Virus record (IMG/VR): IMGVR_UViG_3300045988_078563
DNA length: 57,623 nucleotides
Strand: one strand, 5' to 3'
From: a virus
The translations under genes were made by a program, and so were the position numbers. Of the stretch, positions 109 through 54,274 are shown piece after piece. Positions within the stretch are counted from its first letter, which is position 1; every line of letters begins with the position of its first letter. The notes below the pieces were generated by a model. That model had not been told where the DNA came from, did no database searches, and saw only the letters and a program-made list of their open reading frames with translations.

Positions 109-137
109 TTGACATTCCATATATTATGTATTACAAT
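109..137 (+). promoter_or_regulatory. Early promoter copy P1 (TTGACA-N17-TACAAT)
   Basis: ttgaca 109-114, 17-nt spacer ending atgtat, tacaat 132-137, followed by atagtcaagttaagaaa box. Confidence 0.8.
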
Positions 138-189
138 ATAGTCAAGTTAAGAAAACAAATACATATTATATTATATGGAGGTAATTATT

Positions 190-696
190 ATGAACAATAT
201 GATGATTAAAGCAGAAATGAGCAGAGAAGATAAGTTATACTCAATGAAGGGAGATATGCTTATTGCAGAATGTGATAAGTTAGGAGTAAAAGTTAACTGC
301 AATAAGACAAGAACTCAGCTTAAAGAGAGCAAGTCTAAGGTTATAGAAAGAATTTTAGCGTTTGAAAGTGAAGTAGACAATAGCATATCTGTATCTGATG
401 AATCAGTAGTTGAAGATAATAATGATATAGCTAATACATCAGAAAAGAAAGAAACTAATACTATTGATTTAGATGTAGAATCATTTTGTGAAAAAAATCA
501 GTTAACTATGCATACAGCTGTCAAGAAGAATACTTATTATATTAAGTTAAATTCTAAGACTTTAAAATTAAGAGTAACAAAGAAAAATTATATATGTTAT
601 AAGTCAGGTAAGTATGATAATGGTACTTATGAAGAAAAGAGCAATAGAACAAAGTATGTATTAACATCTTTAACTGACTTATTAACTTTAGCATAG
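190..696 (+). CDS. Early hypothetical protein with N-terminal HeH/SAP-like (Rho_N-like) motif
   Basis: ORF track 175..696. TGGAGG sits 8 nt before ATG 190. Motif: LIAECDKLGVKVNCNKTRTQLKESKSKVIERIL. Confidence 0.6.
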   Translation: MNNMMIKAEMSREDKLYSMKGDMLIAECDKLGVKVNCNKTRTQLKESKSKVIERILAFESEVDNSISVSDESVVEDNNDIANTSEKKETNTIDLDVESFCEKNQLTMHTAVKKNTYYIKLNSKTLKLRVTKKNYICYKSGKYDNGTYEEKSNRTKYVLTSLTDLLTLA

Positions 697-709
697 AAAG
701 GAGTACTAT

Positions 710-1452
710 ATGAATGTTATTGATAATGTTGAACCTGGAAATAAGTGGGAATTTGATTCTAATGTAGCAGAGTGTTTTGAGAATATGCTACAGCGTTCTA
801 TTCCACAGTACAATTTAATGCGTGATTCTATAGCTGGATTGAGTAAGTATATACTTGAACATTCAAATAAACATATAGTTAGTATATTAGATATTGGATG
901 TTCTGATGGGTTAATGATTCAATCTTTAAAAGAAACATTAGATAAGTTATCTGATATAGATATTAGATATACCGGGTGTGATGTATCTGAACCTATGCTA
1001 ACTAAGGCAAAACATAGATTTTTGGATGAATTAATTGAAAAGAAAATTACTATTCTTAATTGTGATTTACGCACAGACTACCCGATTGGTCTGTTCGATA
1101 TAGTAACATCTTGCTTAACAATTCAGTTCACTCCAATTGAATATCGTCAGCACATAATTCAAAATATATATATGATTCATTGAGCAGTAAGAATGGAACA
1201 TTTATTATGGTAGAAAAGGTGCTGGGCAGTACAGATATTCTTAATCAGGCTATGGTGAGTAATTATTATGAAATGAAAAAGACTAATGGTTATTCAGAAG
1301 AGCAGATTGAAAGAAAGAGACTATCATTAGAGGGTGTATTAGTCCCAGTTACTAATGATATGAATATTAATCTATTAAAATCAGCTGGATTTAAGCACGT
1401 TGATGTATTTTGGAGATGGATGAATTTTACAGGTTATATTGCAATAAAGTAA
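710..1452 (+). pseudogene. cmoA: cmoA-like carboxy-S-adenosylmethionine (Cx-SAM) synthase, frame broken by a 2-nt excess in the (AT)5 tract 1164..1173 (ORFs 710..1183 and 1180..1452)
   Basis: Joined translation is collinear with E. coli CmoA along its full length. Matching blocks: [63 protein letters not shown]. Confidence 0.8.
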
Positions 1453-1462
1453 AGGAGATTAT

Positions 1463-2500
1463 ATGTTAGAACCTATTAAACAATTAGATTCAAATGGTCT
1501 TACTTGTATAGATTTATTTTGCGGGGCAGGTATAGGAGCATATGGAGTTAAAAGAGCAGGATATAATATTTTATGGTCTGTGGATAATGATGAAGATGCG
1601 GTAAAAACATATAATCTCAATATCGGAAATCACGCTATTTGTGCGGACATTCGTACAATTAAACCTGATGATATACCAGATTGTGATTTGATGATAGCTA
1701 CACCCGTATGTAAACCCTTTTCAGTTTGCGGAGCAAGAAGACTAACAAATGATAAAAAGTACGGAGATTTATTAGCTGAAACTATAAGATTGTTTAGTGC
1801 TAAAAAGCCAAAGGCATTATTTTTTGAAAATGTAGCTGGTATTGCTATGGGAGATAGCTTATCAATTTTTAAGGAATTTTGTCGATTGATTGAAAGTTAT
1901 GGTTATCATACTTATTGGAATATTGTAAATTCATTTGAACTTGGCGTGCCACAGCAAAGAGAGAGAGTATTTATGGTGGCTATTGCAGATTCTATAAAGA
2001 ATGAGTTTATAGTACCTAAATCAGTATGGCATAGAACAACACAGCGAGATGCTATTTATGATTTAAAAGATAAAACTATAGCAGATGTTAAAAATCATAA
2101 TACTGATAAATTGAGTTCTTCTATATATTCAGCATTTAGCAGTAATTTTAGACAGAATACTTGGGATGAACCTGCTAAAACTGTACTATCTTCTCAGCAA
2201 TCAGCTCTATTATATCCTGAACCTTATAAGATATCTGATAACTATAAGGAAGCACATAAGCAGATGTTGAATGATTCAAATTTCCCAAGAAGAATGTCTG
2301 TACGAGAACATCTTAGATTGCAGACTGTCGGGGATGATTTTTATTTCTCTGATGATATATCAATTAAAGAACAATATAATAGATGTTCAGGTGTGCCAAG
2401 TCTTGTAGCATATAAATATACTTGTGCTATTGCAGATTGTCTTTTAGGTAAAACATCAAATAGAGATTCATCTATTAAATATAGAAAGAAGTTGTTTTAA
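1463..2500 (+). CDS. dcm: DNA (cytosine-5) methyltransferase family enzyme with atypical motifs IV and X
   Basis: Motifs DLFCGAGIG (I), ATPVCKPFS (IV), FENV (VI), QQRERVF (VIII), RRMSVREHLRLQ (IX), CSGVP (X). RBS AAGGAG. Confidence 0.85.
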   Translation: MLEPIKQLDSNGLTCIDLFCGAGIGAYGVKRAGYNILWSVDNDEDAVKTYNLNIGNHAICADIRTIKPDDIPDCDLMIATPVCKPFSVCGARRLTNDKKYGDLLAETIRLFSAKKPKALFFENVAGIAMGDSLSIFKEFCRLIESYGYHTYWNIVNSFELGVPQQRERVFMVAIADSIKNEFIVPKSVWHRTTQRDAIYDLKDKTIADVKNHNTDKLSSSIYSAFSSNFRQNTWDEPAKTVLSSQQSALLYPEPYKISDNYKEAHKQMLNDSNFPRRMSVREHLRLQTVGDDFYFSDDISIKEQYNRCSGVPSLVAYKYTCAIADCLLGKTSNRDSSIKYRKKLF

Positions 2501-2622
2501 TGAAAATTTATATATTAGGTAAAATAACAGGAACAACAGATTATATACAAAGATTTGAGAGAGCAGAAAAAGCTCTCTCAAAATATATAGTAATCAATAC
2601 AGCTAAAGTAAATATGCAGTAG
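2500..2622 (+). pseudogene. 40-codon remnant resembling the N-terminus of DUF4406 / nucleoside 2-deoxyribosyltransferase-like proteins
   Basis: MKIYILGKITGTTDYIQRFERAEKALSKY..., taATG overlap with the MTase stop, truncated by TAG. Contains the 9-bp GC-rich hairpin 2556..2580. Confidence 0.35.
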
Positions 2623-4091: not shown

Positions 4092-4984
4092 AAGGACAAA
4101 GTGCAGTAAATGTTGAAAATCAGTTAATCACAGATAAATATGCTTTATATAATGGTGATAGCTGTGAGATTATGAAAGGAATACCTGATAATAGTATTCA
4201 CTTTTCTATATTCTCTCCGCCTTTTGCAAGTCTTTATACCTATTCAAATAGCGACAGAGACTTGGGAAACTGTAGAACAACAACAGAATTTTATGAGCAT
4301 TTTAAGTTTATAGTTTCTGAATTGTACAGAATTACAATGCCCGGAAGATTAGTAAGTTTCCATTGTATGAACTTACCAACAAGTAAAGAAAGAGATGGAT
4401 TTATAGGAATTGAAGATTTCAGAGGACTTCTTATAAAGTTATTTCAAGATAGTGGATTCATCTATCATTCAGAAGTTTGTATATGGAAAGACCCAGTAAT
4501 CGCAATGCAGAGAACAAAGGCACTTGGACTACTTCACAAGCAGTTGAAAAAAGATAGTTGTATGAGTAGGCAAGGAATACCCGATTATCTTGTAACAATG
4601 AGAAAACCAGGGGAGAACCCAGAAAGATGTGAGCATACTAATGAATCATTCCCAGTCAGCAAGTGGCAGAATTATGCCAGTCCAATTTGGATGGATATAA
4701 ATCCAAGTGACACATTACAGGCAAGAAGTGCTAGAGAAGAGAAAGACGAAAAGCATATATGTCCTTTACAGTTGCCTGTTATAGAAAGAGCCATTGAACT
4801 TTGGACTAACCCGAATGACATTGTATTTACTCCATTTCTTGGAATTGGCTCAGAATGTTATAAGGCAATAGAAATGGGCAGACGAGCAATGGGAATTGAA
4901 CTCAAAAAGAGTTATTATGAGCAGGCTTGTAAAAATGTAGCAAGTGTGCCATTTAATAGCTTATATAAGAAAGGTTTATTTTAA
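4088..4984 (+). CDS. Beta-class DNA methyltransferase (N4-cytosine or N6-adenine)
   Basis: SPPF catalytic motif (FSIFSPPFASLY) N-terminal to the SAM motif FTPFLGIGSE. GGGAGG before ATG 4088. Overlaps the helicase stop. Confidence 0.8.
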   Translation: MKGQSAVNVENQLITDKYALYNGDSCEIMKGIPDNSIHFSIFSPPFASLYTYSNSDRDLGNCRTTTEFYEHFKFIVSELYRITMPGRLVSFHCMNLPTSKERDGFIGIEDFRGLLIKLFQDSGFIYHSEVCIWKDPVIAMQRTKALGLLHKQLKKDSCMSRQGIPDYLVTMRKPGENPERCEHTNESFPVSKWQNYASPIWMDINPSDTLQARSAREEKDEKHICPLQLPVIERAIELWTNPNDIVFTPFLGIGSECYKAIEMGRRAMGIELKKSYYEQACKNVASVPFNSLYKKGLF

Positions 4985-4998
4985 GGAGGATTTAATTA

Positions 4999-6093
4999 AT
5001 GAAAGTAGTATCAAGCAGAATGAAAGAAGCAGTAAACAAAGCAATTAAAGGAGCAGGATTTAACAATCTTATTCCTATTACCTCAATGATTGGTATTAAA
5101 TTATCAGATGGAAAGCTGAGATTGCTCACAACAGATATGACTAATACATTATGTATTATCATTGACAAAGTAGCTGGAGAAGATATGGATATTACAGTTG
5201 ATGCAGATAAGTTTGGAAAATTGATTGCAAAGACAACCTCAGAGGATATTGACTTATCTGTAAAAGATGATGTACTTTTTGTAAAAGCAAACGGAACTTA
5301 TAAGATTCCATTGATTTCAGATGAGGAAGGACTTATCTCATTCCCGGATATTAAGATGATGGATGATAAAAATGTACAGTGTAAGACAAAGCTGTCAAGC
5401 GTTATGCAGGCTTATAATATCAATAAATCAGCACTTGCAAAAACACTTGATAATCCAGCATTAACTGGTTACTATTGTGGAGATACTGTTATTAGTACAG
5501 ATGCGAATGTAATCACATTTAATGGATTTAAGATGTTTGATAATGAAGAACCTATTCTTATTTCTGCTCAGCAGATGCAGTTATTGACACTGAATACAAA
5601 GGAAGATATTGTGGTTTTTATAGGAAGAGCAAGTATTCAGTTCGTGACAGAGGATGTTGTGATTGATAGTGCATTGATGGAAGGAATTGAAGATTTCCCA
5701 GCTAACGAGGTAAACGCTTATCTTGATGAAGCATTTACATCTTCTTGCAAAGTACCAAAGGATTTACTTCTTTCTGTACTTGATAGACTTGCATTATTTA
5801 TTGAGCCTTATGATAAGAATGGAGCATATTTTACATTCGGCAGAAAGGGTATCAATATTCACAGCAAGAAGGATGCTTCAACAGAGACTATCAACTATGT
5901 GGAAAGCAAGGACTTTGAACCATTCGTATGTTGTGTTGATATTCCAATGTTAAAGGAACAGTTGCAGGCTAACCCGGACGATACTGTTAAGATTTGCTAT
6001 GGAAATGAAAATGCTTTAAAGATTGAAAGCGGAAAAGTAACACAGGTTATAGCATTGCTTGAAGATGAAGACCTTGACAATATAACTGAATAA
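4999..6093 (+). CDS. dnaN: DNA polymerase sliding clamp (beta, DnaN-like)
   Basis: 364 aa. DnaN-like N-terminus (LIPITSMIGIKLSDGKLRLLTTDMTN) and an aedFP-like SFPDI segment. Confidence 0.7.
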   Translation: MKVVSSRMKEAVNKAIKGAGFNNLIPITSMIGIKLSDGKLRLLTTDMTNTLCIIIDKVAGEDMDITVDADKFGKLIAKTTSEDIDLSVKDDVLFVKANGTYKIPLISDEEGLISFPDIKMMDDKNVQCKTKLSSVMQAYNINKSALAKTLDNPALTGYYCGDTVISTDANVITFNGFKMFDNEEPILISAQQMQLLTLNTKEDIVVFIGRASIQFVTEDVVIDSALMEGIEDFPANEVNAYLDEAFTSSCKVPKDLLLSVLDRLALFIEPYDKNGAYFTFGRKGINIHSKKDASTETINYVESKDFEPFVCCVDIPMLKEQLQANPDDTVKICYGNENALKIESGKVTQVIALLEDEDLDNITE

Positions 6094-6158
6094 GTATATA
6101 CTTTATATTGCAAACGAATTGAAAGACATTACTGTTTTTGCCTCTTTCTTAATGAATG

Positions 6159-6190
6159 CACCCTTATAGAAATATAGGGGTGTATTTTTT
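6159..6190 (+). terminator. Rho-independent terminator
   Basis: cacccttata/tataggggtg stem (one G-U), gaaa loop, then tatttttt. Confidence 0.75.
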
Positions 6191-6211
6191 ATATAAATTT
6201 TAAAAATATGC

Positions 6212-6240
6212 TTGACATTTCTATGTATATGTATTACAAT
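6212..6240 (+). promoter_or_regulatory. Early promoter copy P3
   Basis: ttgaca 6212-6217, N17, tacaat 6235-6240, then ataatcaagttaagaaa. Confidence 0.85.
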
Positions 6241-6287
6241 ATAATCAAGTTAAGAAATACATACATACATAGAAAGAGGTAATTGAT

Positions 6288-6485
6288 ATGAAAGGTTATG
6301 CAATATATTTTACATGGAATGATGGAACAGAAGATAGCTTTAATGTAGCAGATGCTAAAGAAAGAGATTTTAATATTAAAGACATGATAGCTAGAAAAGA
6401 ATTTAAAGCTGTTAGTTATTGTAGAATATATGCTAGTGGAGAATACGGAAAAAAGAGTAGTAGTTTTATAAAGGAGGAAAATTAA
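6288..6485 (+). CDS. Hypothetical early protein
   Basis: ORF track; AGAGGT RBS; first gene after P3. Confidence 0.6.
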   Translation: MKGYAIYFTWNDGTEDSFNVADAKERDFNIKDMIARKEFKAVSYCRIYASGEYGKKSSSFIKEEN

Positions 6486-6659
6486 ATGACAAAAAGAGCA
6501 ACTAAAGCCTTGCAAATATTAGAATCTAATCATTGTATGATTAATAGCTTATGTACGAAAGAAGAATTAAAGAGCTATAAGGATTTTGATTTTGTGGAAT
6601 ATCTAAAGAGGGCTGTTAAAAGTTATGGTAATGATAATGTGGAGGTGATTAGGCGGTGA
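6486..6659 (+). CDS. Hypothetical small protein (57 aa, below the track cutoff)
   Basis: ATG 6486 directly after the upstream stop. GTGA overlap with the next gene. MTKRATKALQILESNHC... Confidence 0.5.
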   Translation: MTKRATKALQILESNHCMINSLCTKEELKSYKDFDFVEYLKRAVKSYGNDNVEVIRR

Positions 6660-7453
6660 GTAGAAGACTAATAAATCTAATAAATAACAATAAACCACAG
6701 CTTCCCGCAAATAAGAAATTCTTATCTGATGTTATGAGTTGTATTGAAAGAATGGAACAAGAAGGAAGAAGAAAAGGAAGTAATTATTATAAACCTTCTT
6801 CTCTTCACTGTATGCGGAATATGTACTTCACTCGTACTAAAGCTCCTACAGACCCACAACCTACAGAATATAATTCTATAGGTATGGCGGATACAGGTAC
6901 AGACAGACACGAAAGAATACAGAATGTATTATTACATATGCAGGAGATGGGATATGATTGGAAATATCTTGATGTAGCTGAGTATGTTAAACAGAAGCAG
7001 AAGTTCGGAAAATGTAAGTCTTTGATTGTAAAGGGTACACAGGGAGCAGAAACACATCTTATAGATACTGTGTTAAATTTATCTTTCAGATGTGATGGCA
7101 TTATAAGGAGAATATCTACAAATGAGGATTATCTTTTTGAATTTAAAAATGTAGTATCCTTCAAATATAATCAACTTGATAATCATTGCTTAGAACAACA
7201 TCACAATCAGGTTATATGTTATTGTACTGCTTTAGATTTGGATAAGGCTTTCGTGACATATGAGAATAGAGATATATGCACACTTGAAGTTCCTGAAGTA
7301 TTTGAAGTAACTCAGGATATGAAAAACTGGCTTGTGAACTATATAAGTGAATGTGAAGGTTATGTAGAAAGAATGATTGCACCACCTAAAACAGAAGATA
7401 CAAGAAACTGTAAATGGTGCAGATATAAGTCAATATGTAGAAAGGCAGGATAA
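6656..7453 (+). CDS. PD-(D/E)XK exonuclease, Cas4/RecB-like with Fe-S cysteines
   Basis: D...EFK core (RCDGII...LFEFKN), QxxxY (QHHNQVICY), N-terminal Cys plus C-terminal CKWCRYKSIC. Confidence 0.75.
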   Translation: MSRRLINLINNNKPQLPANKKFLSDVMSCIERMEQEGRRKGSNYYKPSSLHCMRNMYFTRTKAPTDPQPTEYNSIGMADTGTDRHERIQNVLLHMQEMGYDWKYLDVAEYVKQKQKFGKCKSLIVKGTQGAETHLIDTVLNLSFRCDGIIRRISTNEDYLFEFKNVVSFKYNQLDNHCLEQHHNQVICYCTALDLDKAFVTYENRDICTLEVPEVFEVTQDMKNWLVNYISECEGYVERMIAPPKTEDTRNCKWCRYKSICRKAG

Positions 7454-7455
7454 AA

Positions 7456-7719
7456 ATGCGTAATTATGTTTTATTTGATGTTCAAGATATGGATGTAGAT
7501 TCAGAATTAGAGAATCTTGTAGAAATACCAAACTCTTATGGACATGAACCATACTTAATAATGTCAAAGATGACATTTAAGCTTATTAAAATGCTATCCA
7601 AAGGATATGATGATAAAGATAATTCATGGGTATATGATGGAGGCTTGGGCTGGGTACCATATAAATTTCAAATTGCAATTGATAAAAGTATACCTTTTGG
7701 GGAGGTGAATGTGAAATAA
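7456..7719 (+). CDS. Hypothetical protein
   Basis: ORF track; tight packing with neighbours. Confidence 0.55.
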   Translation: MRNYVLFDVQDMDVDSELENLVEIPNSYGHEPYLIMSKMTFKLIKMLSKGYDDKDNSWVYDGGLGWVPYKFQIAIDKSIPFGEVNVK

Positions 7720-53981: not shown

Positions 53982-54038
53982 CCTACAAATGAATATAAAA
54001 ATAATGTGAAGCGATAACACACATATAAACACTAATAT

Positions 54039-54110
54039 AGCCCTTTCGCCAAGTGGTAAGGCACAGGAGTTTGATTCCTGTATTCGTTGGTTCGAATCCA
54101 ACAAGGGCTG
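54039..54110 (+). tRNA. tRNA-Gln (anticodon UUG)
   Basis: Hand-folded cloverleaf. Acceptor AGCCCTT/AAGGGCT, D-arm GCCAAGTGGTAAGGC, anticodon stem CAGGA/TCCTG with loop GTTTGAT, T-arm GTTGG-TTCGAAT-CCAAC. No encoded CCA. Confidence 0.85.
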
Positions 54111-54274
54111 TTTGTCCTCTGTAGGACAAGTAAATAAATCTGAGAATATATCCCTGGCAGACAAAAGAAAAAGGACCGGATATTAGGAGAATGCGTTCAT
54201 TGGGGTAGACAGGAATAAAGCTGGGAATACTGTCAAAATGGAATATAAGTGATTGCGATGTAATGGGCTTATAA

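Follow-up and report, generated by a model that had tools for sequence, protein, structure and literature searches.

We analysed a viral DNA of 57,623 nucleotides (IMG/VR record IMGVR_UViG_3300045988_078563; the whole stretch is called the window here), which is an essentially complete siphophage genome of about 57.6 kb with a GC content of 32.5%. Positions 710 to 2,500, in the replication-gene region of the phage, contain a cmoA-like gene that is split by a frameshift and, directly downstream, a gene for a C5-cytosine DNA methyltransferase (MTase). A preliminary description of this stretch had proposed that the phage synthesises carboxy-S-adenosylmethionine (Cx-SAM) for its own MTase, by which 5-carboxymethylcytosine (5cxmC) would be produced in the phage DNA. 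The features of the locus are as follows.

710..1171, + strand: cmoA-like gene, N-terminal part (residues 1-154, Rossmann core binding S-adenosylmethionine, SAM); the frame stays open as far as the TGA at 1181-1183, for a product of 157 aa
1164..1173, + strand: (AT)5 tract with the +2 frameshift; (AT)4 in relatives
1174..1452, + strand: cmoA-like gene, C-terminal part (residues 155-246) in the -1 frame, including Arg203 (1318-1320)
1452..1457, + strand: AAGGAG, read from the sequence as the ribosome-binding site of the MTase gene, overlapping the cmoA stop TAA (1450-1452)
1463..2500, + strand: intact gene for a 345-aa, HaeIII-like C5-cytosine MTase (PF00145, 4e-58) of a lineage with R-C-S-G in motif X (RCSG lineage), a predicted (carboxy)methyltransferase
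1697..1723, + strand: motif IV, A-T-P-V-C83-K-P-F-S, with the catalytic Cys83, from the comparison of homologue clusters
2372..2398, + strand: motif X, Q304-Y-N-R307-C-S309-G-V-P, from the alignment to M.HaeIII and sister MTases

Translation of 710..1171 joined to 1174..1452 yielded the 246-aa, CmoA-collinear protein that had been described, and the blocks of E. coli CmoA (EcCmoA) quoted there were all present in the real 247-aa protein (L033:1703-2446). Comparison of the repaired protein with CmoA structures and residues, as had been recommended, revealed end-to-end matches to PDB entries 1im8/YecO (2e-26) and 4gek/EcCmoA (1e-21), along with matches to the NCBIfam model for CmoA (TIGR00740, E 6e-44, 150.5 bits, model positions 14-239 of 239) and to phrog_4752 of PHROG (6e-65). 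With the residue list for EcCmoA SAM contacts and Arg199 taken from PMC3663124, the equivalents of Y39, D62, G64, S66, D89, D117 and F137 were found to be conserved, those of N90 and N132 to be replaced (by V and C, respectively), and the window Arg203 to align with EcCmoA Arg199, which forms a salt bridge with the Cx-SAM carboxylate (PMC3663124). These results confirmed that 710..1452 codes for a full-length CmoA-family protein split by a frameshift, with a match far beyond chance, and the repaired protein is predicted to convert SAM and prephenate into Cx-SAM. No homologue of CmoB was found in the window, the best tblastn match of EcCmoB having an E value of 0.76, which agrees with the earlier remark that no CmoB-like open reading frame (ORF) could be found in the genome.

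The break in cmoA is a +2 insertion, namely one additional AT in the (AT)n tract at 1164-1173, and an uninterrupted cmoA of 738 nt (246 aa) is present in four IMG/VR relatives (96-98% amino acid identity) and in the Logan contig L028. Arg203, the equivalent of the carboxylate binder, is encoded beyond the frameshift, which means that the 157-aa product cannot act as a synthase. Programmed frameshifting at the tract was considered and rejected, as no X-XXY-YYZ slippery site is present and the intact relatives have one repeat unit fewer. The ratio of nonsynonymous to synonymous substitution rates (dN/dS) against the relatives was 0.07-0.10 for cmoA with the part after the lesion included, about 0.03-0.06 for the C-terminal part, and 0.04-0.08 for the MTase gene; because the ratio stays low also downstream of the lesion, the lesion is either recent or an error. 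It was also noticed that the relative L029 (ENA ERZ28661602 scaffold_297) has an independent cmoA frameshift at 1140-1181, where a poly-A run reads A9 and not A8, and that its gene is called at 191 aa.

A pathway of the proposed kind has been demonstrated experimentally in Synechococcus phage S-B43, in which the phage CmoA makes Cx-SAM, CmoX, a C5-MTase homologue, forms 5cxmC from Cx-SAM, and CmoY ligates glycine to 5cxmC to give the glycine amide 5gcxmC (Yang et al., Nat Commun, 7 Dec 2025, PMC12783734). In the crystal structure of SpCmoX (8YF3), Arg350, at the position of Asn304 in M.HhaI, binds the carboxymethyl group, and a census of 5,615 CmoX candidates required both the SPPC motif and R350 (PMC12783734); contig lists for this census were not found in the supplements of that paper. 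The Asn of motif X acts as the switch for Cx-SAM acceptance in the engineered M.MpeI N374K and M.MedI N377K, in agreement with the earlier remark that a single active-site change lets a C5-MTase use Cx-SAM. Wild-type M.MedI, in which the Asn is retained, works well with SAM and weakly with Cx-SAM; cofactor choice is therefore not all-or-none. A homologue of the CmoY-type ligase was not found in the window.

The MTase gene starts with an ATG at 1463, 10 nt after the end of cmoA and behind its own ribosome-binding site, as had been described. Besides PF00145, its product matched TIGR00675 (4e-49), and its best PDB sequence match was M.HaeIII (3e-35), followed by 8yf3 (1.8e-12). Foldseek comparison of an AF2 model (pLDDT 83.6) gave TM scores of 0.76-0.83 to M.HaeIII and of 0.67 (E 2e-19) to SpCmoX 8yf3. 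The fold and the catalytic motifs are those of a C5-MTase, with C83, E122-N-V and Q164-x-R-x-R168 invariant across the lineage. In motif X, the canonical Gly-Asn (N304 in M.HhaI) is absent from the window MTase, which has R-C-S-G there. Ser309 fell opposite the motif X Asn when the protein was aligned to M.HaeIII and the closest Asn-bearing sisters (Y-[RK]-[IVL]-V-N-G-V, with equal loop length); MAFFT aligned Arg307 with R347 of SpCmoX instead, leaving a gap opposite R350. Among the 54 nearest representatives with motif X aligned, 43 had Asn and 11 had RCSG. Both motifs are highly conserved in the homologue clusters among the matches listed (60-93% identity), ATPVCKPF[ST] being kept in 120 of 120 and Q-Y-x-R-C-S-G-[VI]-P in 119 of 120. 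At 50% clustering the RCSG lineage is one representative, and the match that follows falls from 454 to 258 bits.

Three further proposals concerning the MTase were examined and discarded. Lys84 after the catalytic Cys (PVCK) was considered as the carboxylate binder and rejected as a hallmark of the lineage; the RCSG superclade has K, T, L or Q at this position, and PVCK also occurs in the sister P0124, which bears Asn and has no CmoA. Asp41 of motif II, a possible analogue of M.MpeI E45D, is not discriminating because many Asn-bearing sisters have Asp too. GGCC as a HaeIII-like target is not supported, as the genome has a single GGCC. The target-recognition region (window 2075-2290, MTase residues ~205-275) was observed to differ from that of the relative L005, whereas the catalytic parts are nearly identical (86% overall), and in L028 the MTase is 93% identical to that of the window and the CmoA only 76%; the pattern points to mosaicism, and possibly to swapping of target specificity. 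Two RCSG-type MTases of ~680 aa (P0127 and P0138) are interrupted by inteins, as indicated by matches to intein N- and C-terminal models.

Gene neighbourhoods linked the RCSG motif to CmoA. RCSG-motif MTases adjoin a CmoA-family gene in about 40 loci examined. A survey of cmoA and C5-MTase adjacency, which had been suggested earlier, revealed a C5-MTase beside every IMG/VR relative of the window CmoA (41-98% identity), these MTases being of three types (RCSG, FPCK / ER-A-G-R and SpCmoX type). The cmoA gene is immediately upstream of the MTase gene in all RCSG-lineage relatives with flanks (L005-L009, L012, L013, L015, L019, L028-L032, L050 and L060). In five loci (L012, L019 and L030-32) a ligase homologous to SpCmoY (27-38% identity) is located between cmoA and the RCSG-type MTase; such a ligase requires a carboxyl group on the DNA as its substrate. 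Divergent RCSG MTases on unrelated contigs (P0121, P0122, P0126, P0131 and P0132; 36-46% identity) are each beside a CmoA-family gene, CmoA being the best NCBIfam match of these neighbours (5e-12 to 4e-51), and scans with the RCSG pattern added four IMG/VR loci and 17 informative metagenome loci with an adjacent CmoA. As controls, the nearest Asn-bearing sisters P0124 and P0129 had no CmoA within 4-5 kb. No signature other than the RCSG motif X tracks CmoA.

Chorismate mutase makes prephenate, the co-substrate of CmoA. A gene for this enzyme (PF01817 and several NCBIfam chorismate mutase models) was found between the cmoA-like gene and the RCSG MTase gene in two of the loci with divergent RCSG MTases, L043/L044 and L045 (L043:1286-1546, L044:1317-1553 and L045:3721-3999), which suggests that the phages themselves supply prephenate for making Cx-SAM; upstream in L043 there is, in addition, a CmoY-like gene. 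This association is not mentioned in PMC12783734. A second C5-MTase is present in four loci with CmoA and an RCSG MTase (L040:2307-3317, L045:2136-3068, L048:3488-4312 and L053:5383-6291); those of L045, L048 and L053 keep the motif X Asn (F-T-C-N-G-M-T), and that of L040 (2307-3317) showed no such motif. This arrangement suggests that writers of 5-methylcytosine (5mC) and of 5cxmC may stand side by side in such loci.

Two other phages were also noticed. In L106 (Staphylococcus/Mammaliicoccus phage vB-SscS-F1, MW589261) cmoA, a CmoY-like gene and a C5-MTase gene lie in a row at 4980-7498, and motif X of the MTase (Y-D-V-V-G-G-V-I) has neither Asn nor Arg, a further CmoA-linked type outside the published signature; being a cultured phage of a Gram-positive host, it is a practical test organism. 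Within INPHARED, the window CmoA is best matched (42% identity) by L001 (Alcaligenes phage Afa-NA1, PV550095) at 6001-6753, which has no C5-MTase within 6 kb and is surrounded by genes for a NUDIX hydrolase, dTMP kinase, an adenine methylase and thymidylate synthase; the CmoA of this phage may have another partner.

Taken together, we consider it reasonably probable that 710..2500 is a two-gene phage module for DNA cytosine carboxymethylation of the CmoA-CmoX kind, the intact form of which is found in close relatives. In the intact form, the CmoA homologue would convert SAM and host prephenate into Cx-SAM, and the translationally adjacent HaeIII-like C5-MTase would attack C6 of cytosine via Cys83 and transfer the carboxymethyl group of Cx-SAM to C5, yielding 5cxmC. 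Without a CmoY-type amide ligase in the window, the pathway would stop at 5cxmC, which would serve as protection against restriction. The Ser that replaces the motif X Asn, together with the invariant Arg two residues upstream (R-C-S-G), may be the way in which the carboxylate of the cofactor is accommodated, a role for Arg307 that we infer from sequence. The use of Cx-SAM by the window MTase is likewise predicted from gene context and not from the known determinant, because the enzyme lacks both SPPC and R350. A second lineage of CmoA-coupled cytosine carboxymethyltransferases, separate from the published CmoX and with 5cxmC as the end product, would follow from this proposal. We also lean, if only slightly, towards the wider view that the RCSG MTases are an independent, HaeIII-like and convergent second natural family of carboxymethyltransferases, widespread among the phages of Firmicutes-type hosts, both human-associated and environmental, and in some cases accompanied by their own chorismate mutase, the window strain being a natural cmoA-null variant; as they would recognise Cx-SAM without a residue of the Arg350 type, they would have been missed by the census based on SPPC and R350.

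Several observations weigh against these proposals. The TIGR00740 score of the repaired protein is lower than the equivalog cutoff of 193.3. In motif IV, the window MTase has T80-P81-V82-C83 where the published CmoX has S95-P96-P97-C98, and the position of SpCmoX R350 and HhaI N304 is occupied by Ser309, with Arg307 at -2. One clear exception to the CmoA linkage was encountered, an RCSG MTase with a canonical FPCQ motif IV (L081:3733-4860) that has no CmoA within ~3 kb on either side and neighbours without a Pfam match; in addition, the 0.9 kb available upstream of the RCSG MTase of L090 contained no CmoA. In the window itself the reading frame of cmoA is interrupted, which shifts Arg203 into the other frame, and the identical truncated 157-aa protein is on record in JGI/IMG, ENA, Logan and NCBI nr (DAT76534.1, TPA Caudoviricetes sp.), in 4-6 contigs, although these records may stem from the same reads. 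Finally, the MTase is intact while cmoA is broken, and hence the MTase could also work with SAM. A rival reading is an ordinary SAM-dependent 5mC MTase beside a CmoA that acts independently, for example by depleting SAM or by producing an MTase-inhibiting analogue directed against BREX or restriction-modification; we regard this as unlikely. It accords with the presence of all C5-MTase catalytic motifs, with M.HaeIII as the closest relative, with the survival of the MTase next to the broken cmoA and with the cofactor use of wild-type M.MedI, and SAM depletion was left as an open question in PMC12783734. It does not explain, however, why the nearly invariant Asn of motif X has been lost, or why RCSG tracks CmoA adjacency while Asn-bearing sisters are without CmoA; the CmoY-like ligases between cmoA and the MTase make sense only with a carboxyl group on the DNA, and the presence of a second, Asn-bearing C5-MTase beside the RCSG one in several loci argues for different chemistry. 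The idea that CmoA serves tRNA modification, the phage manipulating cmo5U34 of host tRNA, is very improbable. Public annotations do name the protein 'tRNA (cmo5U34)-methyltransferase', and the phage has a tRNA-Gln (UUG) gene (54038-54111, replication region), but tRNA-Gln is not known to be a cmo5U tRNA, and the cmoA-like gene is linked to a DNA MTase in all cases and never to tRNA enzymes. Moreover, the window is without a CmoB homologue, and the cmoA/cmoB pathway is, according to PMC12783734, not typical of Gram-positive hosts.

It is also possible, though rather doubtful, that sequencing or assembly introduced the frameshift by mistake and that the CmoA-MTase module is fully working in this phage. 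The lesion consists of a single repeat unit within a short simple repeat, strong purifying selection persists after it, 19 of the 20 members of the 90% cluster that includes the truncated protein are full length, and the different frameshift of L029 lies in a poly-A run, a typical error site. On the other hand, the exact truncated product occurs in four source collections, dinucleotide tracts of 4-5 units are not known as classic error sites for Illumina data, and the neighbouring DUF4406 gene of the same strain has a real 129-nt deletion, which indicates that gene decay in this operon is real. A real and recent inactivation of cmoA was judged somewhat more likely than an artefact. Unless the additional AT reflects an error in the consensus sequence, the putative carboxymethylation module most likely does not function in this strain. 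As for the phenotype, synthesis of Cx-SAM is not known from Gram-positive hosts; with cmoA frameshifted in addition, we infer that this strain may not carboxymethylate its own DNA.

Three more features, outside the module, belong to the same operon.

109..137, + strand: promoter-like site TTGACA-17-TACAAT (11/12 consensus matches, identified by consensus match only), preceding the ORF175-cmoA-MTase operon
175..696, + strand: first gene of the operon, a 173-aa ORF with no function assigned; relatives have an ORF of 147-168 aa in the same place
2500..2622, + strand: remnant (40 aa) of a DUF4406 / nucleoside 2-deoxyribosyltransferase-like gene that overlaps the MTase stop

The 173-aa ORF had no Pfam or PHROG match. 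The DUF4406-like gene codes for 95 aa in L028 and L029, and the window copy is shortened by a deletion of 129 + 3 nt. A second, near-identical promoter-like site was located at 2655-2683 ahead of the next operon (TTGAC[AT]-17-TACAAT, with similar flanks), so that the ORF175-cmoA-MTase-DUF4406 operon is flanked by such sites on both sides. Elsewhere the genome codes for PolA, DnaB, a primase, a clamp and clamp loader, RecA, two SNF2 helicases, an N4/N6 MTase, a sigma factor, a terminase and a portal protein. PolA is most similar to its counterparts in Clostridium phages phiCTP1 and FA88 (48-49%) and in Streptococcus phage Dp-1 (43%); from these relatives and the GC content, a low-GC Gram-positive, Clostridium-like host is likely, as the preliminary description had also supposed. 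A megablast search of INPHARED gave no near-identical isolate of the window phage, and no prophage like it was found in the GTDB representative genomes, where there was only a single distant match. Short palindromes are scarce over the whole window relative to Markov expectation, with 0 GATC (178 expected), 0 GCGC (27), 1 GGCC (30), 14 CATG (180) and 2 CGCG (10), and ATGCAT and CTGCAG are depleted too; the phage thus appears to rely heavily on site avoidance besides modification.

Natural 5cxmC was established only in December 2025, and its known distribution rests on one active-site signature (PMC12783734). If the RCSG enzymes are carboxymethyltransferases, the modification is more widespread than has been counted, including phages of Gram-positive gut bacteria, and there is more than one natural way to bind the carboxylate of Cx-SAM. 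Such enzymes would be useful for engineering sequence-specific carboxymethyltransferases for 5mC sequencing (DM-seq, CMD-seq), and the chorismate mutases carried by phages would reveal a means by which they obtain prephenate. Together, the frameshifted strain and its intact siblings offer a natural on/off comparison of what the modification guards against.

Compared with E. coli CmoA (PDB 4GEK/4IWN; H. influenzae YecO, 1IM8), the window protein is collinear over its whole length, but it has no CmoB partner and its gene is interrupted in this genome. M.HaeIII and the phi3T-type C5-MTases are the best match of the window MTase in sequence and fold, and motifs I, IV (Cys), VI (ENV) and VIII (QxRxR) are present in it; they differ in having the canonical motif X (I/V)-G-N-A-V-P, whereas the window has R-C-S-G-V-P, and the canonical enzymes are not linked to CmoA. 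The window lineage has lost the motif X Asn as have the engineered M.MpeI N374K and M.MedI N377K, with the differences that these carry Lys at the Asn position, whereas the window MTase has Ser there with a basic residue at -2, and that the window lineage is a natural family. With the S-B43 CmoA-CmoX-CmoY system the window shares a phage CmoA homologue beside a C5-MTase homologue, the absence of CmoB, the loss of the canonical motif X Asn, a ligase homologous to SpCmoY in relatives of the module, and the predicted chemistry from SAM and prephenate through Cx-SAM to 5cxmC. Differences from S-B43 are that the window MTase is only ~25% identical to SpCmoX and nearer to M.HaeIII in sequence and fold, that it has TPVC in place of SPPC and Ser where SpCmoX has R350, its Arg standing two residues earlier, that with no ligase in the window the pathway would end at 5cxmC and not at 5gcxmC, and that the host is a probable low-GC Gram-positive instead of a cyanobacterium, with cmoA frameshifted. 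The original proposal, that Cx-SAM is made for the phage's own MTase, stands in part: it agrees with the S-B43 pathway, with the CmoA adjacency and the loss of the motif X Asn, and with the CmoY-like ligases and chorismate mutases of relatives, although the idea is no longer new, the published CmoX signature is absent from the MTase and cmoA is broken here. While this kind of pathway is already published, what is new is the evidence for a second, CmoA-coupled C5-MTase lineage negative for the published signature, the link to chorismate mutase and the probable natural cmoA-null state of this strain.

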